Assembly: GCA_015711855.1 (NCBI GenBank)
Contig: JACVJF010000001.1
Coordinates: forward strand, 6,164 to 70,163
Direction: 5' to 3'
From: Candidatus Solincola quzhuomuensis
GTDB taxonomy: Bacteria; Actinomycetota; Geothermincolia; Geothermincolales; RBG-13-55-18
Length of the DNA stretch: 64,000 nt
Part shown: in pieces, positions 14,497 through 53,435 of the stretch
Layout of the letters: every line of letters begins with the position of its first letter
How positions within the stretch are numbered: position 1 is the first letter of the stretch
Notes under the pieces: model-generated
The model's database searches: none
Told to the model about the DNA's origin: nothing
Seen by the model: only the letters and a program-made list of their open reading frames with translations
Program-made: the position numbers and the translations under genes

Positions 14497-16368
14497 ATGA
14501 TGATGGGCAAAGGAGAAACAGAGAGCAAGCAAGCCGCCCGGAAAAGGCGCAAGCCACAGAGGTACCTCATGGGCCTCCTGGTGGTGGTGATCGCCGTCCT
14601 GGCGGGCGGCATGATGTCCGTTATGGCGGTCATGGGCTCTCCCTTCCGCTTCGTGGTTAGCGGCTTTCTGGGAGCCTGCGTTTTGGTTCTGACCCTCTTT
14701 CTCACCTGGGAATGGTGGCGGTATCGGGAGCAGAACAAGGAATACATAGACGAGATAACGGATCTCAACCTGCGCTTCGGCATCCTGGCCGACGCGGTCA
14801 GCGCGGTGAGCTCCACCCTGGACCTCAAGGAACTCGTGGAGAACATATTAGGGGTGATGCTAACCCTAACCAGTTCCAGTATAGGGGTCGTGCTGGTTCC
14901 GGACGAGGAGGGAAAGTACCTGCAGGTTCTATCCCACCGCGGCTTCCGGGAGGAAGCGGTGCGTGGACTTAAGATAAAGGTGGGAAAGGGAGCGGTGGGA
15001 AGCGCTTTCCTGACGGGTCGGATGCTCATCCGCGACGATCTTCCTCCAGATCCTCGTGCTCGGGACACTTACACGGAGGGTAAAAGCCCTCTCTCCCAAG
15101 TGATCATGCCCCTCAAGGCCAAGGGGGAGGTGGTGGGCGTGGCGGTGACCGCCACCTGCGAGGAGCACGAATATAAGCCGGAGGAGATCTCCCTGCTATC
15201 CAGCCTGAGCCACGAACTGGCCGTGGCCATGATCAACGTGGAACTCTACAGGAAGAGCCAGCAGACCCTGGAATGGCTGGCGGAAACCCAGGAATACACG
15301 GAACACTTCATCCAGGAAATGCTGGCCGGCGTCATGGTGGTCAACGCCGAGGGCGAGGTCATTTACTTCAACCGCGAGGCCGCGGAGATGCTGGGCATCG
15401 AGCCTAAAGAGGTCATTGGTATAAACTACCAAGATATGGTGGAGGATCGGGAAAAGTTCCGGTCCCTCTCCTATTTCCGGTCCATACTACGCATCTGCTT
15501 GGAGGAGGACCGCGCGTTCCGCCGGCACGAAATGGTCATCGAAGGGCCGGAGGGTGGCCGCATGACCATAAGCTTCAACGCCTTCCCCATGCACCGGGCA
15601 AAAGGCGGGCTTCTGGGAGCAGCGGTGGTCTTTATGGACGTCACGGCCATGAAGGACATGGAAAGACGACTCCGGCAACAGGATCACCTCTCCATCCTGG
15701 GGCAGATGGCGGCAAAGATTGCCCATGAGGTGAAGAATCCCCTGTTCGCCATAATAGGCTTGGCGGATGAGCTGGAGGAGGGGGAAACCGACCCGGAGCG
15801 GAAGAGGCTCCTGGAGATGATCCGTAAGGAGGCGTTGCTCGGCAACCAATGGATTTCGGGCATGCTAACCTTCAGCCGGGCCCCGTCCCCCGCCGGCGAG
15901 GAGACTCCGCTGCCCTTGGGGGAGGCCGTCTCCTCCCTCATCGAGGACTTCCTCCTCACCAATGAGAGGGAGGACGTGCGGATCGTCCGAGACCTGCCCG
16001 CCGATCTTCCGCCCGTTCTCCTCAACCGTGACAACCTGCGCCACGTGCTGTTCAACCTGCTGGAAAACGCCATCCACGCCATGCCCAGAGGCGGGACTAT
16101 CACCGTCAGCGCCCGCGAATCCGGCAACGGCTTCGTGGAACTCACGGTGGAGGACACGGGAGAAGGCATCCCGGAGGAGATCCTGCCTTCCATCTTTGAC
16201 CCCTTCTTCACCACCAAGGAGGGAGGCACCGGCCTGGGGTTGTCCATCGTCCAGAAGATCCTGCTGGACAGCGGCGGAAAGATAGAGGTACGCTCGCAAC
16301 AGGAAAGGGGAACGGTTTTCACCATCAGGCTTCCGACACGAGGGGTGAGCTATGGACGACGGTCGTAA
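14497..16368 (+). CDS. membrane-anchored GAF-PAS sensor histidine kinase
   Basis: 2 TM helices, GAF, PAS, HisKA 'IAHEVKNPL', HATPase_c '[12 protein letters not shown]'. Confidence 0.85.
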
Positions 16369-16729
16369 CGTCAAGCTACTCATCGTCGACGACAACGAGG
16401 GCGTACGCCACCTGGTCTCACGCTGGCTAGAACGGGCCGGTTTCCGCGTGGAGGAAGCCAGCGACGGGGCGGAAGCCGTGGAGCTGGTGAGAAAAAACCC
16501 TCCTGACGTCATCCTGGCCGACATACGTATGCCCAAGCTCGACGGCATCGAGCTGGCACGCATCGTCAAGGAGGAGTTCCCGCAGATCAAGGTGATACTG
16601 ATGACCGCCTATTCCTCTCCCCAGACCATAGCCCAGGCGCGACGTGAGGGCGTGGACGATTACCTGGAAAAGCCGTTTACCCGTGACCAGGTGGAAAAAA
16701 TGGCCCTGGAGATCATTTCCAGGAAATAG
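16352..16729 (+). CDS. single-domain response regulator (CheY-like receiver)
   Basis: 'LIVDDNEGVRHL...DVILADIRMPKLDG...KVILMTAY'; 17-nt overlap with kinase gene. Confidence 0.85.
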   Translation: MDDGRNVKLLIVDDNEGVRHLVSRWLERAGFRVEEASDGAEAVELVRKNPPDVILADIRMPKLDGIELARIVKEEFPQIKVILMTAYSSPQTIAQARREGVDDYLEKPFTRDQVEKMALEIISRK

Positions 16730-17788: not shown

Positions 17789-17944
17789 ATGGGTAAGGCT
17801 AAAAAATTGACCAAAACCGAAAAGAAGCTGGCCAAGATCGAGAAGCAGAAGGGGAGCCTGGAGAAGAAGCTGTCCAAGTTGGAAAAGGCGCGCGAGAAAC
17901 TGAGGAAAAAAGCGGACAAGCTGGCCAAGAAAGTGGAAGGCTGA
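17789..17944 (+). CDS. small Lys-rich coiled-coil protein (51 aa), hypothetical
   Basis: strong SD 'AAAGGAGG' 7 nt before ATG; periodic K/L/E repeats 'KKLAKIEKQKGSLEKKLSKLEK'. Confidence 0.45.
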   Translation: MGKAKKLTKTEKKLAKIEKQKGSLEKKLSKLEKAREKLRKKADKLAKKVEG

Positions 17945-18025: not shown

Positions 18026-18655
18026 CTATCTTTCTTCTCCCAACATGGCCAAAAGCGCTCGCTTGGCCCTCCGAAACTCCTCCTCCGTCAAGGCGCCCGA
18101 ACTCCCAAGTTCGTCCAGCCTGCGTATCCCCTCCACCAGTTCCAGCTCTCGAACCTTTACGCTTCCGCTCGTCCCTCCGCCGGCCGCCTCCATCTGCAGC
18201 CCTTCCTCTCCCAAGCCGGAGACGCTCGCCAAACGTTTACCCTCTCTCTCCTCCAGGAAGATGCGTTTCCTTTCCAGGATGAGGGTCCGTACCGTATTGG
18301 GATCGCCGATATTGGTGAAGGGTTGCTGGCCGAACTCGTCCGCGGACTCGATGATAAGGTCTCCGTAGTTGAAAATGCGCTCCCAGACGTTCTGCGTCCC
18401 GCTTATGTCGTTCACCTGGTCCAACGGAATGGCCTTGAAGCTCTTGTTCAATACCCCGGAAACCAGAATCAGCTTGCAATCGGTGAGGATGGTGTGGGTG
18501 AACTACCGCCGAAGAAGGGGATAAATCAGCCATCCCGCGACCACCACGGCGAAAGCCGCCCATGCCGCAGCCGTCCATATCCTGCTAAAGTCCCGGCTGT
18601 TGCGGAACCAGAACAGGGCGACCCATCCGGCGGCGATCAGGGTCGCGAGGTCCAC
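18026..18655 (-). pseudogene. YdbT-like membrane-anchored bacterial PH (bPH_2) + SHOCT protein interrupted by in-frame TAG
   Basis: two TM helices (GTG start ~18655) run in frame through TAG at 18503-18505 into the PH-domain ORF 18026..18451; C-terminal SHOCT 'ALTEEEFRRAKRALL'. Confidence 0.6.
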
Positions 18656-19133
18656 GGGCAACAGGAGATCTCTCTCCTTAAGCTTGCCTCTTCAGGAAGG
18701 ACCATAGCCCGTAGCGCATCAGCAAACACGCCGCGAGCACGCTTATCAGAAAACGTACCCCCAACCGGTCCTGGAGGATGGGCCCGGCTTGAACCTGGCT
18801 AGAACAAGCACCAGGACCACCACGGCTACAACACCGATCAGCAAGTTCCATCCTATCTCCTACAGGGAATGCCTCTTGATGAAGATCAGCTCCTCGCCCG
18901 ATTCCAACATCCCCGCCGCCGTCCCCTCCATCTCTCCCCTTTCCTCGATGATCGATACGGCATCGTAGGCGTTTCCACCCTTCCCTCGTCAACCTGCCGG
19001 GCGCGGCTCGAACGGGCCGGCGAGATCCTCGCAAAGTTATTTCCAGGCGACTTGGTTAGCCCGGCGTTGTCTTCCCACCGCAACCATCCCGCTGTTCACA
19101 AAGGCGGAAGTCCCCTCCCAAGCTTTCGGTCGT

Positions 19134-20039
19134 TCAGAAGCAGGTGATCCTGGTGAACTCCCGATAGCGATCCTCGATCTCCTCCAGGGTCAGGCTCCTA
19201 AGCCGCCGGCAGGAAAAGTCTTCCACGGCGAAGGAGGCGATGACGCTCCCGTAGACCACCGCCCGCCGGACGGCGTCCTCGTCGAGCGCCGTCTCCCTGG
19301 AAATAGCTCCCAAGAACCCGCCCCCGAAGGAATCCCCGGCTCCCGTAGGATCGAATACCGTCTCCAGCGGATATGCGGGAAGGGAGAAAAAGGTGTCGTC
19401 TCCCAGCATGACCACCCCGTGCTCTCCTTTCTTGATGATTACCCTGCTGGGGCCCATGGCCCGCAGCTTCCTGCCCGCGGCTATCAGATTCGGCTCGTCG
19501 GCCAGCTGGCGGGCCTCGGAATCGTTCAGAAGCAGATAGTCCACCCTGCTTATGGTCTCCAAGAGTTCCGGGCGCTTTTTCTCTATCCAGTAGTTCATGG
19601 TGTCGCAAAGCGTCAGCTGGGGAGAGCGGACCTGGTCCAGCACGTAGGACTGCAGCTCGGGATCGATGTTGGCCAGGAAGACGAACTCGGAATCCCGGTA
19701 CTCCTCCGGGATCTCCGGTCGGAAATCCTGAAAGACATTAAGCTGGGTCTCCAGGGTATGGGCCTCGTTGAGATCGTAGTCGTAATAGCCTCGCCAGCGG
19801 AACGTCCTTCCGGGCAACTTCCTCAAGCCCCGCAGGTCCACGCCTCGTGAGCTCAGGAATTCCAGGTGTTCGTCCGGGAAGTCCTCGCCCACCACCGCCA
19901 CCATCCTCACCTGGCCGAAAAAGGAGGCGGCCACGCTGAAATAGGTGGCCGATCCACCCAATACCTCCTCCGCCTCTCCGAAGGGGGTGCGTATCGTGTC
20001 CAGGGCTACCGACCCCACCACCAGGATGCTCATCCTCAC
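19134..20039 (-). CDS. PfkB family carbohydrate kinase (ribokinase-like)
   Basis: 'DPTGAGDSFGGGFL' PfkB signature 2, N-terminal 'GGSATYFS' motif. Confidence 0.85.
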   Translation of the reverse strand: MRMSILVVGSVALDTIRTPFGEAEEVLGGSATYFSVAASFFGQVRMVAVVGEDFPDEHLEFLSSRGVDLRGLRKLPGRTFRWRGYYDYDLNEAHTLETQLNVFQDFRPEIPEEYRDSEFVFLANIDPELQSYVLDQVRSPQLTLCDTMNYWIEKKRPELLETISRVDYLLLNDSEARQLADEPNLIAAGRKLRAMGPSRVIIKKGEHGVVMLGDDTFFSLPAYPLETVFDPTGAGDSFGGGFLGAISRETALDEDAVRRAVVYGSVIASFAVEDFSCRRLRSLTLEEIEDRYREFTRITCF

Positions 20040-20928
20040 CTCCTAAAACATGCGCTTCCCAATGTTCTTAGCTTAACATGCGTTCCATCTCTGCGGCGTT
20101 CCAGCCGCAAAGCCAGGCTCCAGGCACCGCCGGCCAAGGCGCACAGCCGGAAATCGAAAAACCGATAGAGCGGGACGGCGGCGGGTATCACCTCCTTGGA
20201 TGACCGAATATCGGAGCTGGGCCCCCGGCTCGCCACCAATACCCCCTGGCACGGGGGCATCAGGGGCAGGCTCCCTCGCGTCCGACGGGACAGCATGCCT
20301 CGCCATAAGGAGACTTGGGCTGACGGGGTGGCCGCTGGCCGGGAAGACCGGAAATAGGCAGGCCGTGTCGGGTAGCCGAAACCGGTCGAGCGGAAAAATC
20401 AGGCGGACGACTTCGCGTCGCGAAGAGAAAACGGCCCGCGAATCTCCGTGCCTCTCATTGGCCCGCCTCCCCGCCTCTTCCACCCTTCGGGGGGGGAAGA
20501 CGCGATCGAAGCGCCGTGTTCAGGTGAACCCGGTTTGTAAGTTCGGCGAGGCCTCCGCCGAGAATACCGAGCGGGAGGCCCGTCACAAAGATCAAGGTCA
20601 CATCCCGAAAACAGGACGCGTAGGCTGCGGAGATCGTCTTCGCCAAGAAACGTGGGTATGCCCTTGAGCCTCGATCCCAGGTTCTCCCGGTTGAAGGCGC
20701 CCAAGATCATTCCCGGCATCGCTTGATCTAACGAGCAGGCGCGCCCGTGGATGGGTAAGTCTCGGTAGGAAGAAAACGAGATGGCGCCGACGGTAACGAC
20801 CCCGGAATCCGAGGCCGGCCTCTATGAGCCGGCTCAGGGAAAAGCTTTCGCTCTCCGGTTAAAGTTGAATTGCCGGTGCATAATAGGTATATTTTCAACT
20901 GCAAAAACGCGACGAGAGGTGATCGGAC

Positions 20929-34627: not shown

Positions 34628-35783
34628 GCTGCACTCCTATTATATTTACATCTCGCGCCAACATCTAACGCCGGGCGAGGAGTGAGCACTTTTCTTGCTC
34701 GGAGCGCTTGCCTGACCCCCAGGGAACTGCTCGCCTCTCTCGAGGGTCTCGTTGGCTTTGTAGGTCCTTTCCATCACCGAAATCGACTCCAAATCCCATC
34801 GGACCGGATCCGCATTCGGGACCCACACCTAAGGTCACCAACATTGCGAAGTTCTTTCGCCTCACGCCTTAATAAATTCCTGTCACCCCTTCCCGCCACC
34901 CATCCCGGTCTCCACCGCATACACCCTTGTCACCGGAGGAAAGGTCTATAGTCGCCGCGGGCGTCCTTTCTCGCTCACTGATGGCGTGGTGGAACGATCT
35001 TTGATCGAGTCGACATGTACACCTGCTCATAGGCGTCGGTATGGCCAACGCCCAAATGCTTGATCGTTTTTATCCCCCCAAATGGAATAACGGCTTTCGT
35101 ACCATCCAAACCTCGTAAAGGACGAAAAAGTGAAAGGGGCGGAGACGAAAACTAAAGCGATATTCCCATTGCTCGCGGTCTTTTAATCTTCGCCTTGCTG
35201 ATATGGGGATGCGGAAGCGCCGGAGAACAGAGTGGCGGGGAACAGACCGGCTCTTTCCCGAAGGGAGAGAAGGCAAAGGCCGCTTTGGCTTACCTGGCCT
35301 ACTGGGCCGAGATAAAGAATATGGAGATTGCGGGGGAAATGTTGAACTCCATCACCGGATCCTAGTCGATTCCCCCAACCAGCCAAGGACAAAGGGCAAA
35401 ACACTCCCGAAAGAACGCTCCCTCGGCGACATGGATCTGAGGCCTTTTCGTTACAAGGATTCCGAGGCGGGCTTTTGGACGGCGGGGTCTGGCCGGCGGT
35501 TCGGAACTCCAGCGGAGGGGGATGCCGAGCCCTTTTTTTGACGCTTCTTTGGGCTTTTTCCTCTTGGATATTGGCCCGCGAGGAGAAGGCGCATCCCTTC
35601 TTCGTGCGCTCAAGGCCGCCTGAAACCAGCGAGGATGAAGGTTGACCGCTATTTAGCCGTGCCGCGCGGGATCCTCCCCTAAGGATAGCGAAGTTTCAAG
35701 AAGTCCTTCCTGACTCCTAATAGAAGGCGCATTCCTATAAAAGGATCCAAAACGGCCGGGCCGGGAGCGACGACGGGACGGGT

Positions 35784-36251
35784 TCAGGGGCGGGCACGCC
35801 GTTCCTCGAAAAACCCCTTCAGAAGGGAAAGGCATTCCTCCTCCAGGATGCCCTCGACGACCTCCAGGCGGTGGTGGATGGTCTCGTCGCTCACCAGGTT
35901 ATAGCGACTCCCGGCCGCTCCTAGCTTCGTGTCCCGAGCCCCGAACACCAGACGCGCCACGCGAGCCTGGACCAGGGCTCCGGCGCACATGGGACAAGGC
36001 TCCAGGGTCACGTACATGGTCGTTTTCTCCAGACGCCACCCTCCCAGTCTCCGTGCCCCTTCCTCCAATGCCAACATCTCCGCATGGTCCAAGGGGTTGC
36101 CGGTGGCCTCGCGCCGGTTGTGGGCCCTCGCCAGCACCTCGCCGTCCTTCACCAGCACCGCCCCCACGGGCACCTCGCCCTCCTCGGCGGCTAGGCGCGC
36201 CTCCTCAAGCGCCATCCGCATGAAATCCCTGTCGTTCACGTCGTCTCGCAC
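35784..36251 (-). CDS. tadA: tRNA-specific adenosine deaminase
   Basis: 'HAEMLALE' and 'PCPMCAGAL' CDA zinc motifs. Confidence 0.85.
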   Translation of the reverse strand: MRDDVNDRDFMRMALEEARLAAEEGEVPVGAVLVKDGEVLARAHNRREATGNPLDHAEMLALEEGARRLGGWRLEKTTMYVTLEPCPMCAGALVQARVARLVFGARDTKLGAAGSRYNLVSDETIHHRLEVVEGILEEECLSLLKGFFEERRARP

Positions 36252-38337: not shown

Positions 38338-38468
38338 ATTCCCTTCTCCCCTCGCCGCATCGCCAAGATCCGACCCCGAGAAAAACCAGCAACGCCCTCC
38401 GAAGCCCCTCATAACCGCACATCCCGGGGCCCTATATCGTCCTCACCACCTTAGCGAGGCGAGCCCGA

Positions 38469-38735
38469 TCATTTCTCCGACCCCTCGTCCTTCGTCAAGG
38501 CTCCGGCGGGACACAGGGCGGCGCATCGCGCGCATCGATCACATTCTTCCTTAAAAGCAGCGACGGCCCCCCAGCCTGGGAAAGTGAGGATTATCCGGCT
38601 AGCGGAAGGGCCGCATTCCCCTTCGTGGAGGAGCGAGCACACCATCTGGCATGTGCGGCATCCGGTGCACCTTTCGGGATGATGAATCAAAGCATTCCTC
38701 CCATGATATCTACGTCCGATGTCGACATTGTACAT
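38469..38735 (-). CDS. 4Fe-4S dicluster ferredoxin
   Basis: 'CTGCRTCQMVC' and 'CDRCARCAALCP' motifs; directly upstream of AOR paralogue. Confidence 0.8.
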   Translation of the reverse strand: MYNVDIGRRYHGRNALIHHPERCTGCRTCQMVCSLLHEGECGPSASRIILTFPGWGAVAAFKEECDRCARCAALCPAGALTKDEGSEK

Positions 38736-39654
38736 TCTTCGCCTACCTTGGTCATCTTAGGACGAGCAAGCTCAAGGAATGCGTTCGGTTTTGCCGAAAA
38801 CCTTCTATTTCAATCCATCGCCCAAAGGGGTGGTTGTCCATGGCCGGGTCGGGAAACAAAATGCGCCGTTCAACGCTCGCGGTTTCGCTATGGTTCTCAT
38901 CCTAATCCTGTCGATCGTCGCTTACTTTCTCTTGGACATCATTTTTTAACCAATCGCCGTATCTCCGACAACAAGAAGAAGGCCGTCCAGGAATCGACCC
39001 GCACCCTCGATGGCACAAGAAACATGTTAGTCTTAAGCGAGTTCAACCCCTCCTACCTCAAGGTCTTCAACCAGGAACTTGTCCGGCGGGTCTTGGGGAG
39101 GCGACCTGGACTGCCTTTACGACTTCGCGATACAGGTGGCTCTTCTCTTATATCCCGTGGAATACGCAAGCATCATAAAAGACGGGCGGGTAATGACCTA
39201 TGGCGCTCGTGCGGGATGGAACGTAGATCCCTCCCGAATGCCGACAACGCCGCCCGAGGAAGGATACCTGGTACTGAACAGGCTGGGGGGACGGGAAGGC
39301 TTTTTTATCTCCATTTACAACCCGGTAGACCTGAGTGTACTCGGGCTGTAGGCAAGGGGCATTGTGCGTGGTCAGCCCCATCGAAAGACTCAACCGCCAG
39401 GCCTAGATGATCGTGGAGGGCACCTTCGAGGGCGAGGCGGAAGTGGAAGAGGGCAGCGCTTTCGCCGCCCTGCAGGGGCTTCTCCGCAGCGGCCAGAGGG
39501 TGCTGCGCGGTCTCGACGAACGCTTCAAAGAAGAAAGGGGGTTTTACGACGGAAAAGAATAAAGTTTCCTGGGTCGATCAACGATATATTTTATGAATTA
39601 GCCGCCCGCAGGTGCGCTCGGTCCGCCGAGAGGAGAGAGTGGAAGGAGGAATAA

Positions 39655-39888
39655 TTGGCCAATAAGCTGGCTCAGGAAATAGAGAAGATTCTCTCCGAGG
39701 CGGTGGGCGAGTTCATCGCCAAGGCCACGGTAAAGAAGAACTGCGAGCTTATCGGCTGCACTCCGGAGACCCTTACCGCTGCTCACCTTCCCGAGCTGGC
39801 GGAGAAGATCGACAAATCGGTCTCCTTCTTCTCCGGAAAAGAGGTGGGGAGTTCCCTAGCGGAGAAGATAAGAGCTTTAAAGGTGTGA
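39655..39888 (+). CDS. hypothetical small protein (77 aa)
   Basis: TTG start with AGGAGG 8 nt upstream; coding-like. Confidence 0.4.
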   Translation: MANKLAQEIEKILSEAVGEFIAKATVKKNCELIGCTPETLTAAHLPELAEKIDKSVSFFSGKEVGSSLAEKIRALKV

Positions 39889-40211
39889 GCTTGAGGAGCA
39901 GGCCCGGGGGATTTGCCCCCGGGCCTCATACACGGCAACGGCCTCGCGGGAAGATAAATCATTATAACCGCAAGGGTTGGGAAGCATCTCCTTCAAGCCC
40001 GGGAAAACCAAGTACAAAGCTTCAGGCAACGGGGGAAATCCGTGAACGAACCTTATCTTCCTGGGTTTTCCCGCGCCCTATACCACCCTTTAAGGCGAAA
40101 GATCATCGACGTCGGATCCCGAAGAGGGAACGGGTCAAAGCTTTCCTCACCATTTGCGCTTCTCCCTGATGGGTGACCGGGTTGATGGCCGCTGTGGATG
40201 TTGGGTTTCCG

Positions 40212-40820
40212 CTAGACCGCCAAACCCAGGGATTCCATGACCTCTTCCAACCTCTCCCGTTTTCCCCTCCACCTGTCCTCCCGGTAGAGGGCCGGGCAAT
40301 CCCGGAGGCGATGTTTCTCCTGCAGCAGGAGCAGGGCGAAGGCCAGACAGCTCTGCTCCCCGCACTCCCGGCAGTTGGTCTGGGGGAGAAGTCCGTAGAT
40401 GTCCAGGGGTTTTATCTTTATCTTCCCCTCGTAGACCGGCTTTATCTCCTTTCGGTGTTCATGGACGTAGTTCAATCGCTCCGCCAGCCAGGCCAATACC
40501 TCTTCGGCGTCGGCCACGTCGTCGGCCTTGGCTATGGTCACTCTGCGGGGGTACACCGTGACCAGCCGCGGACCCTTGGTGAAGGTGAGAGCGGGACGGT
40601 CGGCGGCATAGGTTGCCATCCCTGGCTTCCCCTCCGTTTGCCCGTCCTCTTGTCCCACTGCGGCGCCACCCTGCCCCACATAGGTGGCGTTGGCCAGAAC
40701 GGCGTTCAGATAAGGCAAAAGATCGCTCACATCCACCGGGATACGGGCAATGAGCCTTATCTTGGTCTCGTCGGCGAAGCAGGGTTCCACCTGTTCTATC
40801 TCTATCCTCTCGATGAGCAT
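40212..40820 (-). CDS. uncharacterised Fe-S protein with C-terminal PF04060-like (CFeSP AcsC/CdhE N-terminal-type) 4-Cys domain
   Basis: 'LPQTNCRECGEQSCLAFALL...DCPAL'; N-domain 'LLPYLNAV'; paralogue of 50704..51228; SD 'GAAGGGAGGAG'. Confidence 0.6.
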   Translation of the reverse strand: MLIERIEIEQVEPCFADETKIRLIARIPVDVSDLLPYLNAVLANATYVGQGGAAVGQEDGQTEGKPGMATYAADRPALTFTKGPRLVTVYPRRVTIAKADDVADAEEVLAWLAERLNYVHEHRKEIKPVYEGKIKIKPLDIYGLLPQTNCRECGEQSCLAFALLLLQEKHRLRDCPALYREDRWRGKRERLEEVMESLGLAV

Positions 40821-42616: not shown

Positions 42617-42757
42617 CCGAGTCCTGTCTAGCCTTGGTATGCGGACTGATCAAAGGGCCGGTGCGCTCATAGTCTTTCGATTTCTTCCCGTTATTGACGC
42701 CATAAGAGCACTATTAGTCCCTTATCGAGTCGTCGAGGTTCGGCTTGCGAAACAAGC

Positions 42758-43927
42758 TCACACATCATTTGCCGAACCTCCGTTGGCGGCTACGGCGGCC
42801 GGTACTTCCTCGGGACGGAACCAGTGCTGGGTGCGTAAGCATATCTTAACCAAAAGAAGCATCACCGGCACCTCGATGAGCACCCCCACCACCGTGGCCA
42901 GGGCGGCTCCCGAGGCGATGCCGTAGAGCACGGTGGCCGTGGCGATGGCCACCTCAAAGTGGTTGGAGGCTCCGATCATGGCCGAAGGAGCTGCGTCTCG
43001 ATAATTGAGCCTTATCAGTTTGGCCAATCCGTACCCTATCCAGAATATGAGGTTGGTCTGGATGAACAAGGGTATGGCTATATAGAGGATGGACATGGGC
43101 TGGTCGATGATCAGCTGACCCTTCAGGCTGAAGAGGATGATCAAAGTCACCAGCAGGGCGATGATGGTGATGGGCGTGAGATAGTGGATGAACTTTTCCT
43201 GAAACCAATCCATGCCCTTGCGCTTCAGTATCCATTTCCTGGAAAAATATCCGGCTATCAGGGGGAGGGCCACGTATATGCCCACGGAGAGCACGATGGT
43301 CAGCCAAGGAACGGGCATGCTGTTGACGCCCAGGAGCCATCCGCCGAGGGGAGCGTAAAGGAAGAGCATGGTCAGGGAGTTGATGGCCACCATGACCAGG
43401 GTGTGGCCGTCGTTCCCCTTGGCCAGATAACCCCATACCAGAACCATAGCCGTGCAGGGGGCGATGCCCAAAAGGATGCACCCCGATATATAGGAACGGT
43501 AGAGCTCCGGCCTCAGTACCCCGTCCACCATGATACCCCCGGTGGTGGGTACATAGTGGGTACCGAGATCCGCGCCGGGAATCCATCTCTTGAAGACGAA
43601 GCCCAAAAAGAAGGTGGCGATGGCCACCATGGTGAAGGGCTTTATGCACCAGTTCACGAAGAGGGTGAGAAGCACCGGCTTGGGCGTTTTGCCCGCCTTA
43701 ATGACCTCGGCGAAGTCGATCTTGACCATGATGGGATACATCATGAAGAAGAGGCATATGGCGATAGGGATGGACACTTGGGCCACGGATATCTTGTCCA
43801 AGGCCTCTCCCATGCCCGGGAAAGCTTTGCCCAGCAGGATGCCTATACCGATGCACACCAAAACCCAGACAGTCAGATATTTCTCGAAAAAGCCCAATCT
43901 ACGCGCCACCTTAGGCTGCTCTACCAA
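42758..43927 (-). CDS. acr3: ACR3 family arsenite efflux transporter
   Basis: 10-TM protein with ACR3 hallmarks '[19 protein letters not shown]', '[12 protein letters not shown]'. Confidence 0.85.
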
Positions 43928-44399
43928 TTTTCTCCTCCTTCATTTACGTCTTACGCCGGTTATCTGGAACCGTTCGCCGCGAGTGCCCGCCCGGCAGAGA
44001 CAACATGCCTCTCACTATCAGCCGCATTCCCGACATTCGCGTCGAGAGGGCCGGCCGGCATTCTCCGTTCTCTTAAAACCGCCAACATCGCTCTCTTCCC
44101 TGAGTCCCCGATGCAAACTATTCCGGGTCGTTCGCGAAACCCGGATCAAACGGAACCCTCCCCATAACGGAACCCCCTCACGCCACGTTTTTCAGATGTC
44201 TTCTCCGTGCCTAAGAATTCGAGAAAAGGCCGTTTCGACCTCTCCGCTGACGACGGAGCCGCCGAATAATGGGATGAGGTCCTTCCCCCTAACGACCGGA
44301 GGCCTTTCGGCAACGAGAAACGGGTTTGTCTAGCGAAATCAGCGCCCATAGGATCGACCTTCCTGTGAGAACAACAGGTTACCGAACCCATATAGTACT

Positions 44400-44514
44400 C
44401 CCGTCGTGCCTATTTGGGGCGGCTGATCATAATTAACTATCTATTGACCAAACTAAATTTATCGATATATTAATTATTAAAGAAAATCGATGTCGAGGTC
44501 CATAGTCCACTACC
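44400..44514. promoter_or_regulatory. AT-rich divergent promoter/operator region between acr3 operon and arsR
   Basis: 'atcgatatattaattattaaagaaaatcgat': two ATCGAT palindromes flanking AT-rich core immediately upstream of arsR ATG. Confidence 0.35.
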
Positions 44515-44889
44515 ATGGCTATGAAAGCAAGAGAGTGCAGCGCATCAGAAACACATACCTCATCGGCTTACGAAGAAGCTTGTCCCGCCAAAGGGCGACT
44601 ATTTCTTCCCGAGGTCGACGAGGAAGCATTGAGAAAAACGGCGAAGCTGCACAAGGTCCTCTCGGATGAAACGCGGCTGAAGATACTCCTTTTTCTGCGG
44701 GAGGGTGAACTCTGCGTCTGCGATATCGTCGACGCCCTGGGTAAGCCGCAATCCACCGTTTCGCACCATCTCTTCCTCTTGCAGAATTCAGGCCTCATAA
44801 AAGCCAGAAAAAAGGGGCGCTGGAACATGTATTCCCTAAGCGATACGGCGAGGGCTCTCGGCGACTACTTCCTGAAAATCGGCTTGTAA
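44515..44889 (+). CDS. arsR: ArsR/SmtB family metalloregulator
   Basis: wHTH with 'ELCVCDI' metal-binding motif; divergent from acr3 operon. Confidence 0.85.
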   Translation: MAMKARECSASETHTSSAYEEACPAKGRLFLPEVDEEALRKTAKLHKVLSDETRLKILLFLREGELCVCDIVDALGKPQSTVSHHLFLLQNSGLIKARKKGRWNMYSLSDTARALGDYFLKIGL

Positions 44890-44954
44890 AGCCTGCCGGA
44901 CCGTAAAACGTTATACGAAGCGCACTATAACATCGGACTACGAGGCCCGGCGCA

Positions 44955-45830
44955 TCAAGGCCTTGCTCTCAGCACTAGGACCGGGATCTCGCTGTGGTTG
45001 ACCACGCTCTCCGCCACTCCGCCCAGCAATTTTTCAGGCAAGCGGCGATGTCCAAGCGCTCCCAACACGATGAGCGAGGCACCGATCTCCTTCGCCACCC
45101 TCAGGATGGTCGAGACGGGACCGCCTTCCTCCAGGCGGGTTTGTACGTTGCCGCAATGTGCCCCCAGGCAAGAGGCGAGCTCGCGCAGTTTCTCCATCCC
45201 GTGCTCCGCCTTTTCCTACTCCATTAATGTCTTCATGGCGCCCACATACGCGTCCTCGTCACGCTGCACATGCAAAAGAGTTATATCCTCGCAACAGGAC
45301 GAGGCCATCTCCTCCAATAGAGGCCGGAGGCTCTCCGCGTAGGCGGAGAAGTCGGTAGCCACAAGCACCTTCTCGAAGAGGAGGTCGCATACGGCCTCGC
45401 ACTCATACCCCTCATCCTTTTCGTGGATCCTACACTTATGCACCAACACCGGGCGGTCGGCCAACCGGAGCACCTTACCGCTGACGCTCCCGGTGAGGAC
45501 CCGCTCAAAGAACCCCGCGCCGTGTCCGCCGAGGTAGATCAAGGAAACATCCTCTTCAGCCGCCACGCGGAGGATCTCCCTGGCAGGCGAGCCCGGCTCT
45601 ATCCTTCGGACAACCTCCAAGCCTTCGATGTCCGGCAGGCGGCCGATCCTTTCGAGTTCCCGGCGGGCATAGGCCTCCATCAAATCCTTGGCCATTTCGG
45701 CGTGCCTGGCATCGACGGCATAGAGCAGGATCAACTCCTTCATCCCCGCCCTAACCAGTTCGCCCACACAGCCCAGAAGCCTCTCGGTGTACGGCGAGAA
45801 ATCCACGCCTAAGAGCACCTTTTCGAACAT
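44955..45830 (-). pseudogene. tandem universal stress protein (UspA x2) interrupted by in-frame TAG
   Basis: USP domain 1 intact; domain 2 runs 'ITLLHVQRDEDAYVGAMKTLME-TAG-EKAEHGMEKLRELA...IPVLVLRARP' in one frame; TAG at ~45216-45218; SD 'AAAGGAGGGG' at start. Confidence 0.6.
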
Positions 45831-46075
45831 GACCCCTCCTTTGATACAACAAGGTTGTTCCGACGAATGCAGGTGGCGGGCTACGCATAAACAGCATCTG
45901 TTCAAAACTTCATCATCGCATCGCCGCCCTTCGTCACGGGTCCGCACCTGCGTCGCTTTCCGCTTGCCGTCTCGGCAGGAAAAGATCCTATATATCGCCC
46001 TACAGCCTTGCGATGACGGACGTTTCTTGAAACGCTCGTTTCCGGCGCGGTCTTCACTCATTCGTTTGGAGGCGA

Positions 46076-46807
46076 TCATCCCTCCTTCCGCTCCAGCAGT
46101 GCCTTATACACGTTCTTGCCCCTCACGCGGGGCATGGCCTTTTCCCGCAGGGATTTAAGAGAATCGAGGATATCGTCAAGGTATCTCGCCGGGAAACCGA
46201 GCACGCATTCCCCCTCCGTCAGATCGGTGGCCTCGCGACAACCGTAGCAGCCTATGGACATATTCAGGCGCTGCTGCACGAAGGGGGTGATGGTCACGTC
46301 CACGCATGTGGCCTGAAGAACTGCGGTGTCGAAATGCAACCTTCCCCCGGTCTTGAACACGTGGGCCAATGCGATCCACATCAGGTGCTCGGCCATGGAC
46401 TCGACCACCACCACGTCCGGCTCCTCCTCCGCCTCCCCCAAAGGGCATAAGGACACCATCTTGTACCTGCCCATCTCCAGGCGTTGCATGGTGGAGAAGG
46501 TGTGCTTCACCGCCTCCTGGTTGCCAAAAATCCCCATCGCCGTCGGCATCTCCCCACTTATGAGGCGAGGCGGTGGATCGGCGAATCCCAGGGCCCACGC
46601 GGCAGCCGGGCAGGATATGTTCTCGGGGGTCAGCAGCACGTGCCTGCCCCTCCTCGCCTCCATGAGCACCTGACAGTAGCGCCGCTTGTCCGGTAGGTCG
46701 CACCCCGACAGAGGGGCTAATTCCTCGTGGAACTTCACCGCCACCGGACTGGTGGTCATGCCCAATATCTCCTCTATCTGGGAGGCTTTAATCGAAAAGT
46801 CGGACAT
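46076..46807 (-). CDS. DUF169 family protein
   Basis: 'ISCPAAAWALGF' and 'GCYGCREATD' DUF169 hallmarks. Confidence 0.6.
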   Translation of the reverse strand: MSDFSIKASQIEEILGMTTSPVAVKFHEELAPLSGCDLPDKRRYCQVLMEARRGRHVLLTPENISCPAAAWALGFADPPPRLISGEMPTAMGIFGNQEAVKHTFSTMQRLEMGRYKMVSLCPLGEAEEEPDVVVVESMAEHLMWIALAHVFKTGGRLHFDTAVLQATCVDVTITPFVQQRLNMSIGCYGCREATDLTEGECVLGFPARYLDDILDSLKSLREKAMPRVRGKNVYKALLERKEG

Positions 46808-46950
46808 TTTCTACCTCCTGCTTTTGTGCCATCGGAAAACATAGGTCATCACGCCGGCCTCCAAAACTGCCCGGCATGCCTCTCTCAAGGTCATACCGCT
46901 CCCAGGAACGAGGCTATATCCGCATTGGGCCTTTCCCTGCGGACGTCATG

Positions 46951-47534
46951 TCACGTCTGGGCCTCGCCAGGGGTTTCGTCCGGCGCCTCGTAACCTTCTT
47001 TGAAAAAGACCCTCTCGATGACCTCACTCAAGATGACCACCACCAGGGTAGCCAAGTAACGAGCGAGCATGAACTTCCAACCCAGAAACTGCAGCTCCAT
47101 CAACTCGGCGGGGATTTTTATGCACGCCCAAGCCGAAAGGAAGATGATCATATTCTCCACCTTGGCGCCCTTCCTCAGCAGCATCGACGTCAGCGGGAAG
47201 GCCACTTAGAGCGGGCCCATGGGTATACTCCCCAGGATGAAGGAAAGGATGACCCCCTTGACCCCGGATTCCTCACCCAGAAACCGGACGATGAACTCCC
47301 TTTCCACTCATACGCTTACCAGGCCCATGAGGATAAACACCGCGGGAAGGATCACGGCCATCTCCTGAAATATTCCCAAGCAACGTGTCGGGCTTGAGCG
47401 CCTTTCTCAGGAAGCGTGATGACCATGACCAGGAAAAGGGGTGCGATGAGGAAGAGGGTGGCATAATCCCATCGTATTCGCTTCCGAAGGCTCTCCTTTT
47501 TCCCCTCGGCCCCGATGTCGTCGTTTTTCCTCAT
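46951..47534 (-). pseudogene. DUF318/ArsP-like permease half-domain, disrupted by multiple frameshifts/stops
   Basis: four short frame-shifted pieces each resembling the N-half of the intact permease at 49227..50285. Confidence 0.45.
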
Positions 47535-47977
47535 CCTACGATCACCCCCACCACCACCGCGATGGCCACGGCGGCGACGAAGCTCAAAGCGTTTCTGGCG
47601 ATGGCGAACTTCTTTCCCAGCTCCTTGATCTCCAGGGGCAGGAACACGAAACCGACCATGGTCAGGGTGGTGATGAAGGCCGCGGTGGCCATGTAGCCGG
47701 CTCCCATGTCCAGCAAGGACCTGGCCAAGGGGAAGGCGATGATGACCGGAATGAAGAGCACCGCTCCTAAAAACGAGGCGATAGCCACCCCCTGCGCGCC
47801 GCTGTTCTTTCCGATCGCCTGCGCGATTACCTTGGGCGGGACGAAACCCACTATCAGGCCCACCACCAGGATGATGGCCAGGACACTGGGCAGAAACCTT
47901 ACAAAGCCTTTATAGGCCACGCGAAGCGCAGCTGCCGTCTTCCTCTGATCCTTGACCACACTCAGCAGCAGCAGCAC
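47531..47977 (-). CDS. DUF318/ArsP-like permease, C-terminal-half homologue (148 aa)
   Basis: aligns with C-half of 49227..50285 ('GNAIASVSGALMYFATL...' vs 'GAQGVAIASFLGAVLFIP...'). Confidence 0.5.
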   Translation of the reverse strand: MLLLLSVVKDQRKTAAALRVAYKGFVRFLPSVLAIILVVGLIVGFVPPKVIAQAIGKNSGAQGVAIASFLGAVLFIPVIIAFPLARSLLDMGAGYMATAAFITTLTMVGFVFLPLEIKELGKKFAIARNALSFVAAVAIAVVVGVIVG

Positions 47978-48058
47978 GCCGGTCAGCGCAGCGCGAGAAT
48001 GACGATGGTGGTTATGTCCATGCCGCTCCCTTCTTCCTCTTCCCTTGGGGCATTCTCA

Positions 48059-48412
48059 TCACAGCGCGTCCTCCAAGAAATTGACGCAGGCGTCCTCGGG
48101 AGCGAAGAGGTTGGCGGCCACTTCCACGGCTTTGAGGGTCGCCGCAGGCACGATGCAGGAGTTGCGGCAGCAGTGCTCCGAGGCCGCGCGGTATACCGCC
48201 GTGTCCCGCATGGGCAGGGTCATCTCGCTACCGGGGTTGACCTCCTTGAGCTCCTCCGCCAGCTCCGCGATATGCTCGCAGGAGGTCTCGAACTGCAAGG
48301 ACACGATTGTCTGGCTGCTCTTCCTGGCCGTGATCACCGTCTCCTTGCCGCACTGCCCTCCTTTGACAAACACTATGGCCATGCATTCCCTCCCCCGATC
48401 CCACCCGGACAC
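48059..48412 (-). CDS. DsrE/DsrF-like sulfur-relay family protein (tentative)
   Basis: size and pattern 'AIVFVKGG...CEHIAEL...ACVNFLED' reminiscent of DsrE/YchN fold. Confidence 0.35.
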   Translation of the reverse strand: MSGWDRGRECMAIVFVKGGQCGKETVITARKSSQTIVSLQFETSCEHIAELAEELKEVNPGSEMTLPMRDTAVYRAASEHCCRNSCIVPAATLKAVEVAANLFAPEDACVNFLEDAL

Positions 48413-48593
48413 TTATGGAAACGGGCTTCATCCTGCAACCCGGGTCACCCCGCTCATGACCCATGGTGCCCGAACTCCCTTCCCCTTTGTTGCCACACGA
48501 GTTTCTATCCCCCGGGTTTCGGCGCTTGCGGCTTGCACTTCTTGCGGGTTGAGGATCGCCGCTCTTAGGCCGGCGTTTTTAAAACAACGGTCT

Positions 48594-48977
48594 TTAACCC
48601 TTCGTCGCCAAGGCCTCCTCGATGCGTCGCTTGACTTCCGCCTTGATCCTCTCCTTCTCCTCTTCGTCATAGGCGAGCACAGGGGCCTTCTTCACCCCGA
48701 AATCCTCGACCATCTCCACCCGTAGGTCGGGCTTGCGGCCGGAGTGCTCCTCCACGATCTTGGAGCAGCACATAACCGGGCAGCCCTCGATGATCACGAA
48801 TAATTCCGCACCGGCTATTTTGTTGAGGCCCGTGTCCTTGTCGATGGCCACCGCGGGCAGGCATACCAGGTGGTAATCCTCGTTCTCCTTCACCAGCTCC
48901 GTGGCCACCGCCCCTGCCAGCTGTCCGGTGTTGGCGGCTCCGTAACATGTAGCGATAACAACCTTGAGCTCGGCCAT
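48594..48977 (-). CDS. DGC-domain protein (putative Zn/Fe-binding)
   Basis: 'VVIATCYGAANTGQLAG...YHLVCLPAVAID...FVIIEGCPVMCCSKI' matches DGC domain layout; SD 'AGAAGGAGGAAA'. Confidence 0.55.
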   Translation of the reverse strand: MAELKVVIATCYGAANTGQLAGAVATELVKENEDYHLVCLPAVAIDKDTGLNKIAGAELFVIIEGCPVMCCSKIVEEHSGRKPDLRVEMVEDFGVKKAPVLAYDEEEKERIKAEVKRRIEEALATKG

Positions 48978-49226
48978 TTTCCTCCTTCTGTTCCTTCGAT
49001 GCACGCATACAGCTGCTTTGCCTGCCTTCAAGCCGGTTCCAGAGCCATCCTTCGCCGTTTGCGTTTCGGCTCATAGGTATTACGGCACATCATCCGAACC
49101 GGATCGTACCCGCTGGGACCGCAAACGCTTGCGTACGATGACTCCGAGAAATACTGGCGCTGCCTTCCGCGATTTGTGGATACTTATGTCTTACGCCACA
49201 AACACTTTCTCCTCCGCTCAGCGTCA

Positions 49227-50285
49227 TCAAGCGAACATCCCGAACACGAACCCGGTGCCCATGGCGAAGAGACACACCAGGGCGATGTAGGTCAAGGCTT
49301 TCTTAGGGCCTAAAATCCTGATAAGCACTATCATGCTGGGCAGGGATAGCGCCGGACCGGCCAGCATGAGGGCCAGTGCCGGCCCCTTGCCCATTCCCAA
49401 GTCCAACAAACCGCGCACTATGGGCACCTCGGTGAGGGTGGCGAAATACATGAGGGCGCCGGAGACGGAGGCGATGGCGTTTCCCCCTATGGTGTTGCCT
49501 CCCACGTACCTGGAGATCACCTCGGGCGGGATTAGCTCCTTTATCACGCCGACCAAGAAGACCCCTAAAAGCAGCACAGGGAGGATCATCTTCACCATGC
49601 GCCAGGTCTCAAGGAACCAGGTCTTTATCTCCTCCCTGGTGAACCACCTCTTCACCAGGTAGATGAGTAAAGCCACGAGCAGCACTTCCCCTCCGTACTT
49701 GTAGATGTTGGCCATCTTGGCCGTGCCGTAGACCAGGATGGCGATGAGCACCCCGAAGTAGGCCAGGTTCTGGCGGCCTGGTCGTACCCGACTCCCGTCG
49801 TCGTAGGCGAAAACTCCGGCGGCCTCCGCCTCGAGCATCCGTTGCTCCTCTTCCTTGTGAAAGATGCCGGCCATGATCAGGCCGATGACGAAGGCGAATC
49901 CCACCGCTCCGATGATGCGGGCCACCCCCAGGTCGTACCCCAAGAGGTGGATGGAATAGGTCATGGCCAGGATGTTTATGGCCGGCGAGGAATAGAGGAA
50001 GGCCACCGCCGGCCCCAGCCCGGCCCCCTTCTCCCTTATCCCCGTGAAGAGGGGAAGCACGGTGCAGGAGCACACGGCCAGAATCGCCCCGGAAACCGAG
50101 GCCACGGAATATGCCAGGACCTTGTTGGTACGCGGACCGAAATACTTCATCACCGCCGCCGTGTTCAGGAAGGCGGCTATGGCCCCGGCGATGAAAAAGG
50201 CGGGGACCAAACAGAAGAGAGTATGCTGGGCCACGTATTCGTAGAGGGTCTTGAGGCCCTCCAACATCAACCCGCCGAAAGTCAT
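49227..50285 (-). CDS. arsP: DUF318 permease, ArsP-like (organoarsenical efflux permease family)
   Basis: two homologous 4-TM halves, 'AVCSCTVLP' resembling ArsP 'TPFCSCS' motif. Confidence 0.65.
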   Translation of the reverse strand: MTFGGLMLEGLKTLYEYVAQHTLFCLVPAFFIAGAIAAFLNTAAVMKYFGPRTNKVLAYSVASVSGAILAVCSCTVLPLFTGIREKGAGLGPAVAFLYSSPAINILAMTYSIHLLGYDLGVARIIGAVGFAFVIGLIMAGIFHKEEEQRMLEAEAAGVFAYDDGSRVRPGRQNLAYFGVLIAILVYGTAKMANIYKYGGEVLLVALLIYLVKRWFTREEIKTWFLETWRMVKMILPVLLLGVFLVGVIKELIPPEVISRYVGGNTIGGNAIASVSGALMYFATLTEVPIVRGLLDLGMGKGPALALMLAGPALSLPSMIVLIRILGPKKALTYIALVCLFAMGTGFVFGMFA

Positions 50286-50322
50286 GGGTTATCGCTTCCT
50301 TTCCTGGAATTGTTAAAAGCTC

Positions 50323-50565
50323 TCAAGACTCGAACCAGCTCCTTATCTCTTTCTTCGAAGGAACCTTCCCCTTGGAGACCACCTTTCCGTCGATCACCAC
50401 CCCCGGGGTGACGAGGACGTTGTACTTCATAATCTCCGACATGTCGGTCACTTCCTCCACCTCGGCCTCCAGGCCAAGCTCGGAAACCACCTCCTTGATG
50501 GCCTCCTTGGTGGCGATGCACTTCTTGCATCCGGGTCCCAGTACCTTGATCTCCATCTGACTCAC
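50323..50565 (-). CDS. thioredoxin-fold redox-active disulfide protein
   Basis: 'KVLGPGCKKCIAT' CxxC, 80 aa; typical partner of DUF318 permeases. Confidence 0.75.
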   Translation of the reverse strand: MSQMEIKVLGPGCKKCIATKEAIKEVVSELGLEAEVEEVTDMSEIMKYNVLVTPGVVIDGKVVSKGKVPSKKEIRSWFES

Positions 50566-50703
50566 CTCCGTTCAACTATATTCCTTTCCCCGTCATCGAA
50601 GGTCTTTCGTTCCGCCTGTAATGGGCGCACGACCGATATACACTTCCCCCGCGACATCCAGGGCTTCCAAGCCGACCGAACACGTTCCGTGCGACCCAAC
50701 GAC

Positions 50704-51228
50704 TCAGAGCCCCAGCTCCCTCAACTTTTCCAAATTCTCCTCCATGCCCGCCTCCAGAAGGGGAGGGCAATCCTCCACGCATCTCTCCCCTTCTACCAGC
50801 TGTGCAGCGAAGGCCATGCAGGAAGGCACTCCGCACTTCCCGCAGTTGGTGCGGGGAAGATAACGCAAAATGTCCAGGAGCTTGGGGGGAACCCGCGTGG
50901 TGTGGTCGGGCTCTATCTCCGCCCGTCGCTCCCAGATATCGTTTAACCGCTGCACGACCTTCCTGGCCGTTCTCTCGGCGTGGCCGCGGTCCTTGAGGTT
51001 GTTGATGCTGATCACGTTCTCGCGCAACGCGTACTTGTGAGCGCCTTCCCTCCAGACGATGGTCGGGACCTTGGAATCGTAGAAGGCGTTTTTCACTACG
51101 GCGTTGACGTAGGGCATGAGAGGTCCCAGATCGGCGTCCGTCTTCAACCGAGCCACCCAGATGGGCGACCCCGGGTCGCAGGGCGGCGAGAACATCTCCA
51201 ACTCGTAATGGTTTATGAACATGGACAT
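50704..51228 (-). CDS. uncharacterised Fe-S protein with C-terminal PF04060-like 4-Cys domain (paralogue 2)
   Basis: 'LPRTNCGKCGVPSCMAFAAQLVEGERCVEDCPPL'; N-domain 'LMPYVNAV'; paralogue of 40212..40820. Confidence 0.6.
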   Translation of the reverse strand: MSMFINHYELEMFSPPCDPGSPIWVARLKTDADLGPLMPYVNAVVKNAFYDSKVPTIVWREGAHKYALRENVISINNLKDRGHAERTARKVVQRLNDIWERRAEIEPDHTTRVPPKLLDILRYLPRTNCGKCGVPSCMAFAAQLVEGERCVEDCPPLLEAGMEENLEKLRELGL

Positions 51229-51266
51229 CCTTCTCCACTCCTAAAGCATCTGCTTGCGCTGCCGGC

Positions 51267-51485
51267 TCACCCCTCGCTCTTGCTCTTCCCGGTCACTATC
51301 TCTCCCTGGTTTGGTCGGTACGACTCCTCGAAGACCGGCACGCAGTGCGGAAGATCGGCCTCTTTGACCTTTTTCTCCAACACCTCCCGGATGAACTTCA
51401 AGGCTTCCTCGCGGTCGTCGTCGGCCAGGATGCGCTTTATCCAGATGAGCTCCTCCTCGCCGAGGGACACGGCTATCTTCTTCAT
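51267..51485 (-). CDS. small conserved hypothetical protein (72 aa), 'EELIWLKRI' family copy 1
   Basis: ATG overlaps stop of upstream arsR by 4 nt; paralogue of 53198..53398. Confidence 0.5.
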   Translation of the reverse strand: MKKIAVSLGEEELIWIKRILADDDREEALKFIREVLEKKVKEADLPHCVPVFEESYRPNQGEIVTGKSKSEG

Positions 51486-51895
51486 CCTCTTTTCCCTCCT
51501 CGCCCGTTCGCTTCGCTCCCCCGCTTCGCTCGTGCCGTTGGCGCCGGCGTGCAACACGCCGCATCCGGCCCTTCGCCAGGTTGGCCCCGATTGCCGAGGT
51601 AACGCAGAAATAATTCGGTGAGATTCCCGAGTCTCGCTTCCGCTACCGAATAATACGAGGACGTCCTCTCCTTCCTCGCTCTAAGAAAACCGGACTCTTT
51701 GAGCACGCTGAGGTGGTGTGAGGCCAATTGCTGCGAGATGCCGAGCTCCCTTTCCACCTCGCACACACAATGCTCTCCCCTGAGCAGCAGGCAGATTATG
51801 CGCAGACGGTTGGGGTCGGACAGGACCTTCAGTCCCTCCGCGAGTTCCACTATTCCTGGGTCCACAACGCACTTCAGAGTTTGCCCTTCGGCCAT
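51482..51895 (-). CDS. arsR: ArsR/SmtB family metalloregulator (second copy)
   Basis: 'RLRIICLLLRGEHCVCEVERELGISQQLASHHLSVLKESGF'; C-terminal tail with Cys pair. Confidence 0.8.
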   Translation of the reverse strand: MAEGQTLKCVVDPGIVELAEGLKVLSDPNRLRIICLLLRGEHCVCEVERELGISQQLASHHLSVLKESGFLRARKERTSSYYSVAEARLGNLTELFLRYLGNRGQPGEGPDAACCTPAPTARAKRGSEANGRGGKRG

Positions 51896-52329
51896 CTCTC
51901 CGACCTTTCACCAATTATTATTTGTACTAATTGCAATTTGTATTTTAACTAACCACGGCTCCTTGTCAATGACCAATACCATCATTGGAGGAGCGCCCCA
52001 TTTTTTCCTATCCGGATTGCCACCTCTTTGTCGGCCGGTTTGTCACGTTGCGTTACTGCCTGCCTTAGTCAAGACTCAAGACGCCGACCCCGTGATCCAG
52101 AGAAAGAGACAGCATCGAGACGCTTTCTGTGCCGGCTTCGTCCTCCATGCCTTGAGGTGGCGAGAAGCCCAGCGACACCGTTTACACGTTTAAGAAAGGC
52201 TCGGGCCTGGCTAGACCTCGCGGCGACACAACAACGGGAGTTGGGACAACCCAAAAAACCCGGCAACCGTACACTCCTGTTTGAATCCTGCGAAGGATAT
52301 GGTCGAGGGTTGCACGACATCACCCCAAA

Positions 52330-52430
52330 TTGGACCAACGTTGATCCCGCCGAAAAAAAACAATTGACATGATATGATTTTTTATAAAAATTATAAAAAT
52401 TCTTAATTCTTGCCAAATATTATCTCAGCA
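52330..52430. promoter_or_regulatory. AT-rich promoter-like island (TTGACA ... TATAAAAAT x2)
   Basis: 'caattgacatgatatgattttttataaaaattataaaaatt', GC far below window average, upstream of roadblock-like gene. Confidence 0.3.
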
Positions 52431-52488
52431 TAGGTTTCTTTGTCGATGGTAAAGCGAGAGGGAGGACGAAATGTAGGTTAGCGAGGAA

Positions 52489-52860
52489 ATGCAAAAGGTG
52501 ATCGATTCCCTTTCGGCGCTGCCGGGGTATATCTGCCATGGGCTGGTAAACTACCGCAAGGGGGTTTCCGCTTTGAACGAGGATTCCGATCCTCAAGACG
52601 AGGTGAACTACTTCCCTCAGCAGTGTTCGGCCATCATTCAGACCCTGGAAAAATCGCTGCAGAATCTGGAAGGAGGAAATCCCGACAAGCTGATGGTCGA
52701 ATCCTCCAAGATGACCATGATGATCTTTATAGTGAACGACACTTACTTCTGCGGTGTGGGGCTCAGCCCGGAACCCCCGCGGACGAAGCGGCTCGCCTCC
52801 TCGAGGAACTGCGGGAATCTTTCCGAAAGCAGCTTCCCGGATAAGGGGCAACGACCTTGA
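52489..52860 (+). CDS. roadblock/LC7 (MglB-like) domain protein (tentative)
   Basis: size and pattern 'LPGYICHGLVNYRKG...LMVESSKMTMMIFIVNDTYFCGV'. Confidence 0.4.
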   Translation: MQKVIDSLSALPGYICHGLVNYRKGVSALNEDSDPQDEVNYFPQQCSAIIQTLEKSLQNLEGGNPDKLMVESSKMTMMIFIVNDTYFCGVGLSPEPPRTKRLASSRNCGNLSESSFPDKGQRP

Positions 52861-53398: not shown

Positions 53399-53435
53399 TT
53401 TAAGGCATGGAGGGCGAGGGAGCGAGGGAGGACGC

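Follow-up and report, generated by a model that had tools for sequence, protein, structure and literature searches.

The region at positions 18026–18931 on the minus strand of the window, the 64,000-nt stretch of DNA analysed here with its roughly 60 genes, is very probably a genuine, non-functional pseudogene of a known domain family that carries multiple lesions. A tblastn search with the closest intact orthologue (P0001) placed its residues 1–301 at 18931–18032, and this extent is supported by a DNA alignment with the contig on which that orthologue is encoded (L001). The ancestral ATG start codon at 18929–18931 corresponds in the alignment to the start codon of the intact gene on L001 and lies just downstream of a purine-rich ribosome-binding site, GGAAAGGGGAGAG, which is likewise conserved with L001. 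The terminal stop codon is the TAG at 18026–18028. No second copy of the gene was found when the whole window was searched by tblastn with P0001.

The original prediction had described this locus as a GTG-initiated gene that is otherwise intact and reads through one in-frame amber codon. The amber codon itself, at 18503–18505, was borne out by translation of the minus strand, and the corresponding codon in L001 is TAC. In this frame, the segment VDLATLIAAGW...LIYPLLRR leads into the TAG and continues as FTHTILTDCKLILVSG... to a SHOCT-like C-terminus at 18026. The translation of 18026–18730 (minus strand) thus reads VDLATLIAAGWVALFWFRNSRDFSRIWTAAAWAAFAVVVAGWLIYPLLRR, the TAG at 18503–18505, and then FTHTILTDCKLILVSG...GEER followed by the terminal stop. 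However, the GTG at 18653–18655 is an internal codon, since the orthologues extend ~93 residues further upstream and exceed the 209-aa read-through product by ~90–100 residues at the N-terminus. Comparison with the orthologues and alignment of the start codon showed that the gene is ~280 nt longer than the segment first described. Three-frame translation upstream of 18661 recovered this missing N-terminal part in a broken state, with MEGTAAGMLESGEELIFIKRHSL, a stop codon, and EIGWNLLIG...RTGWGYV in succession, followed by LISVLAACLLMRYGLWSFLKR in another frame and then by KLKERDLLLPVDL.... The gene is therefore far from intact, and the premise of a single TAG does not hold.

Exactly four disabling differences separate the window copy from the syntenic, intact gene on L001. 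The most upstream is a TGG to TAG substitution at codon 24 (18860–18862), which replaces a tryptophan that is invariant in 21 of 21 orthologues and is encoded by TGG in L001. It is followed by a 1-nt deletion at ~18751/18752 (within 18749–18754; GTT-TTC in the window versus ATCGTTC in L001, alignment column 221), which sits in a run of four Ts, and after which the original frame meets a TGA at 18746–18748. A 2-nt deletion is then found at ~18685/18686 (within 18684–18687; GGC--AAG versus GGCGGAAA in L001, alignment columns 288–289). The last lesion is the TAC to TAG substitution at codon 144 (18503–18505), the only one of the four that had been noticed originally, which affects a conserved Tyr/Phe at position 2 of the bPH_2 profile. 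The two deletions add up to 3 nt, so that the reading frame is restored after 22 codons, and these 22 codons are homologous to the orthologues in the shifted frame only (LISVLAACLLMRYGLWSFLKR). This restoration of the frame explains why the downstream portion had looked clean. No uninterrupted ORF joins the transmembrane (TM) segments to the PH domain in the window copy, which is broken by two in-frame TAGs and two frameshifts. The locus is therefore a pseudogene derived from a bPH_2/YdbS-like family rather than a functional member of it.

The gene is intact in all 35 relatives examined, comprising 21 proteins and 14 species loci. In a large protein collection, 22 close homologues of 292–314 aa were found, which originate from Candidatus Solincola and other Actinomycetota metagenome-assembled genomes (MAGs) of the class Geothermincolia. 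Orthologues of the Geothermincolia type are encoded by single ORFs of 300–313 aa. All 21 orthologous proteins are single ORFs that align across each of the four lesion sites, and in a scan covering one genome for each GTDB species, 14 loci were recovered, all of them single ORFs free of internal stops. Orthologues naturally divided into separate TM and PH genes, the pattern that would have spoken against an interrupted gene, were thus absent from both sets. The closest orthologue, P0001, shares 79% identity with the window copy over the region aligned by BLASTP. It is located on Logan contig L001, where, as in the window, a small ORF and then a PHP-domain gene follow downstream. The gene upstream on L001, which is partial, shares 94.5% amino acid identity with the window ORF at 19134–20039. 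The Solincola loci L002–L007 are not syntenic with the window and hence could not be used to check the neighbouring genes.

The genomic surroundings of the orthologues fall into two kinds. In the window and in L001, the gene lies upstream of the small ORF and the PHP-domain gene. The small ORF in the window (17790–17944, plus strand), situated between the pseudogene and the PHP-domain gene, is rich in Lys and Glu and coiled-coil-like (MGKAKKLTKTEKKLAKIEKQKGSLEKKL...), and a 51-aa ORF of weakly similar sequence occupies the same position in L001 (1742–1897). In Candidatus Solincola tengchongensis and a related Actinomycetota MAG, the orthologue is found between a carboxylesterase gene and a MerR/TetR-type gene, and in the Solincola loci a gene for an AMP-binding enzyme also intervenes. 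The existence of two distinct neighbourhoods implies either that the gene has moved or that the two sets are old paralogues.

Hydropathy analysis and Pfam searches indicate that intact members of the family comprise four predicted TM segments, one bPH_2 domain and a C-terminal SHOCT domain, an architecture for which NCBIfam holds no specific model. The N-terminal part of the orthologues that was missing from the segment first described follows the pattern M..EMLE.GEEVIFDKRHSLWEIWRNFLIG...KFKPGPS...TNWGYI.LIS...KRRKL.E and holds two further hydrophobic segments. In the window, all features being on the minus strand, the TM1–TM2 region with the conserved KFKPGPS...NWGY loop corresponds to 18687–18859 and is broken by the two deletions. 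The TM3–TM4 hairpin corresponds to 18509–18670, with hydropathy segments at residues 89–110 and 119–142, and ends two residues before the PH domain. The two TM helices of the original prediction are thus present as a hairpin, but they represent the third and fourth segments of a four-TM protein. The bPH_2 remnant (PF03703) at 18281–18499 begins directly after the TAG at 18503–18505 and was matched with a Pfam E-value of 9e-13 and a score of 47.8–48.7 bits against a cutoff of 22; the score of 47.8 bits for the window copy compares with 56.3 and 62.4 bits in intact orthologues. The SHOCT remnant (PF09851) at 18050–18127 scored 22.1–22.5 bits, below the gathering score of 27, whereas intact orthologues exceeded this cutoff with 29.1 bits (P0001) and 33.2 bits (P0008). 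The predicted continuation into a PH domain is accordingly well supported, while the predicted C-terminal SHOCT domain is a sub-threshold match in this copy (22.5 versus 27). The order of TM hairpin, bPH_2 and SHOCT was right in outline. The description as YdbT-like was inaccurate, because Pfam detects a single bPH_2 stretch, not three, in the window copy and in the intact orthologues alike.

Relaxed constraint on the window copy is evident from its amino acid replacements. In a relative-rate test, in which the differences between the window copy and P0001 were polarised using the remaining 20 orthologues as outgroup and P0001 was assumed to be the true sister, 27 amino acid differences fell on the window branch and 7 on the branch of P0001 (binomial p = 0.0008). 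The window copy also carries seven private changes at columns that are invariant elsewhere, including D to I, W to R, F to T, and W to stop, compared with 0–4 such changes, mostly conservative, in each of the other 21 sequences. Pairwise dN/dS against L001 was 0.24 for the pseudogene, as compared with values of 0.14 (PHP gene) and 0.08 (upstream flanking gene, 19134–20039); the value of 0.24 is only moderately raised, as it averages over the functional sister lineage and the history before inactivation. In a rough check for consistency, the excess of ~50 nonsynonymous changes would imply ~0.08 neutral substitutions per site. At this level of divergence, the expected number of new stop codons in 906 nt is about two to three, and two are seen. 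The combination of four lesions with an excess of amino acid change points to an established pseudogene rather than to a one-step event.

Two other genes in the window are also broken. A tandem universal stress protein (Usp) gene at 44955–45830 (minus strand) contains an in-frame TAG at 45216–45218, in its second Usp domain. This site is E or K in 15 orthologues and is encoded by GAG in the relative P0149 (locus L022), which is 90% identical in amino acid sequence. The GAG to TAG change is the sole lesion of the Usp gene, and there is no rate acceleration (7 versus 5 changes), which suggests that it is either very recent or an error. It is this gene that represents the clean case of an in-frame amber codon, whether the codon arose by very recent nonsense mutation, is an error, or is a candidate for read-through. 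The other broken gene is the second half of a split ArsP_1-type permease at 46951–47534 (minus strand), a pseudogene with three lesions, namely a 1-nt deletion just past WEYF (~47363–47367), an in-frame TGA at 47308–47310 in place of a residue that is mostly W in homologues, and an in-frame TAA at 47206–47208 in place of the Y of GPLYVAFP in the homologues. Its homologues, of 180–205 aa, cover all three lesion sites in one stretch. The first half of the permease (47531–47977) appears intact, and its stop codon overlaps the ATG of the second half (ATGA).

Two of the three broken genes are located in an apparent arsenic/metalloid-resistance neighbourhood at ~42700–54000. Judging from translated ORFs, this neighbourhood contains a putative ACR3-type transporter (42758–43927), putative ArsR-type regulators (44515–44889 and 51482–51895), a DUF169-like gene, a small thioredoxin-like ORF, and a putative ArsC/LMW-phosphatase-like gene (53436–53837). 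Genes with Pfam support in the same region include a DGC-domain gene, a DUF6951 gene, and a gene with a putative Fe-S cluster (FeS) domain. A 352-aa permease-like ORF is found at 49227–50285. Elsewhere in the window, stretches of 0.9–1.8 kb at 20042–20923, 34640–35784 and 38442–40212 contain no convincing ORF by codon-position GC signal and have no Rfam match; the GC content of the 38–40 kb block is 0.574, which is below the window average. Such ORF-poor stretches may represent additional decayed genes, DNA of foreign origin or RNAs that lack annotation.

Of the three explanations originally offered for the TAG, namely pseudogenisation, assembly error and stop codon read-through, the first is the one supported, even though it was framed around a single stop codon. 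For the gene to be intact in the organism, the stops and indels would have to be consensus errors of the MAG, arising for example from low coverage or strain mixing. The window does apparently derive from a metagenome-assembled contig, with the fragment ORFs P0005, P0037 and P0162 all on one 89-kb NCBI contig, and one of the deletions lies within the T4 run. No independent copy of the sequence was found for cross-checking, and an exact 28-mer spanning the TAG, with its third base left free, had no match in JGI metagenome contigs. Against this, the window contains uninterrupted ORFs of 599, 682, 631, 740, 648 and 652 codons, besides some 55 further genes that appear intact, all despite 276 homopolymer runs of at least 5 nt. 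The eight lesions detected are confined to three genes, a distribution that does not fit random assembly error, and four of them fall inside 906 nt. By our own estimate, the probability that at least four of eight random lesions would fall in one 906-nt gene, given ~50 kb of coding sequence, is in the order of 1e-5. Two of the four lesions are substitutions, and the excess of non-disabling replacements at conserved positions would not be produced by random stop-creating errors. An artefact is thus very unlikely. Production of a full-length protein by read-through or by recoding of TAG, whether through pyrrolysine, an amber suppressor or a reassigned code, seems less probable still, and we give it hardly any weight. 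It could draw on the three in-frame TAGs in two window genes (18860, 18503 and, in the Usp gene, 45216), and on the Usp gene in particular, where the TAG is the only lesion and evolutionary rate is not raised. Read-through alone, however, would not rescue a gene with two frameshifts, and the in-frame TAGs align to three different classes of residue (W, Y/F and, in the Usp gene, E/K). TAG is, moreover, a normal terminator here, ending at least six other predicted window genes at sensible positions, among them a complete receiver-domain gene (16352–16729) that ends in TAG 30 nt before a convergent gene. The pseudogene itself terminates in TAG, as do 5 of the 14 orthologue loci of other species. 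No tRNA-CUA was present among the three tRNAs of the window. As these three tRNAs were also the only Rfam matches in the window, the gene has no annotated regulatory RNA or recoding element in its vicinity. The in-frame TGA and TAA of the permease half show that premature stops in the window are not specific to TAG, leaving TAG recoding unsupported; among nonsense codons, TAG is also probably the one that codons ending in G reach most readily in a genome with high GC3.

It is similarly hard to credit that the locus is a natural, functional split, with the TM part and the bPH_2–SHOCT part produced as separate polypeptides and perhaps with programmed frameshifting upstream. Gene calling did yield a C-terminal ORF of 132 aa (P0005), and the sequence would formally allow slippage of −1 on GUUUUC-UGA and of +1 at AGG-C. 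Yet not one split orthologue occurs among the 21 proteins and 14 loci, there is neither a start codon nor a ribosome-binding site after the TAG, and conserved residues are being lost in the window copy. The downstream ORFs begin at TTG codons inside the PH domain, the first at 18451 (~profile position 20) and P0005 ~9 codons further in, so they lack the first strands of the domain. Programmed frameshifting at both indel sites was rejected, as it would require two opposite shifts together with two read-through events, and no orthologue shares such an arrangement. A broader reading takes in all three broken genes, which are among roughly 60 in the window and all encode membrane or stress-related proteins. 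It holds that this Geothermincolia-like lineage is actively losing genes, or that an amber suppressor keeps genes with a single TAG, such as the Usp gene, partly functional, with the PH-domain gene as the oldest casualty. We regard it as improbable, if somewhat less so than an artefact at the PH-domain locus. Decay of a formerly functional PH-domain gene remains the preferred interpretation.

The nearest characterised relatives of the ancestral protein are YdbS and YdbT of Bacillus subtilis. YdbS of B. subtilis is a 159-aa protein of COG3402, while YdbT and the Enterococcus protein DdF belong to COG3428. The former comprises two TM segments and one PHb2 domain, the latter six TM segments and three PHb2 domains, and their enterococcal counterparts DdE/DdF are required for the export of a leaderless bacteriocin (PMC8657885). 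The family described here resembles YdbS in having a single bPH_2 domain (PF03703) directly after a TM hairpin, and several of the orthologues are named ‘membrane protein YdbS with pleckstrin-like domain’ by JGI. Intact members are, however, twice as long as YdbS and differ from it in possessing four TM segments, a motif conserved at the N-terminus and a SHOCT domain at the C-terminus, and the window copy is a pseudogene. With YdbT/DdF, the family shares the domain superfamily and the principle of a membrane-anchored topology, but it has one bPH_2 domain in place of three tandem bPH_2 domains and six TM segments. Intact orthologues qualify as SHOCT proteins (PF09851) by the Pfam threshold, in contrast to the window copy with its 22.1 bits. 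No YdbT-like partner gene adjoins the orthologue in the window, in L001 or in the neighbourhoods of L002–L007. By analogy with the YdbS/YdbT-type proteins, the ancestral role was presumably that of a membrane-associated PH-domain protein, and a role of the bacteriocin-transport type might be envisaged for the Geothermincolia family.

The ancestor was an inner-membrane protein of ~300 aa. It had a short conserved motif at its N-terminus (GEEVIFDKRHSLWEI), four predicted TM segments, one cytoplasmic bPH_2 domain, a linker of low complexity and, at the C-terminus, a SHOCT helix. In this genome, the gene has very probably been released from selection, and it has accumulated the two nonsense substitutions, the 1-nt and 2-nt deletions, and an excess of radical replacements at positions that are invariant elsewhere. 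From the ancestral ATG, translation would stop after 23 residues. The longest ORF that survives contains no TM segment and is missing the initial strands of the PH domain. We therefore expect no functional product from the locus, and we infer a loss of function and the absence of a folded product. In its multiple independent lesions, intact relatives, retained synteny and start region, and faster amino acid replacement, the locus resembles ordinary bacterial pseudogenes. Its only slightly unusual feature is that two deletions sum to 3 nt and bring the frame back after 22 codons. Nothing else sets the locus apart from an ordinary pseudogene.

For annotation, one pseudogene should be marked at 18026–18931 instead of a short ‘PH domain-containing protein’ ORF, and the locus should not serve as evidence of amber read-through or recoding. 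The analysis also defines the true architecture of the family, with four TM segments, one bPH_2 domain and a SHOCT domain, and contributes one small example of gene decay from an uncultured actinobacterium of the Geothermincolia type.
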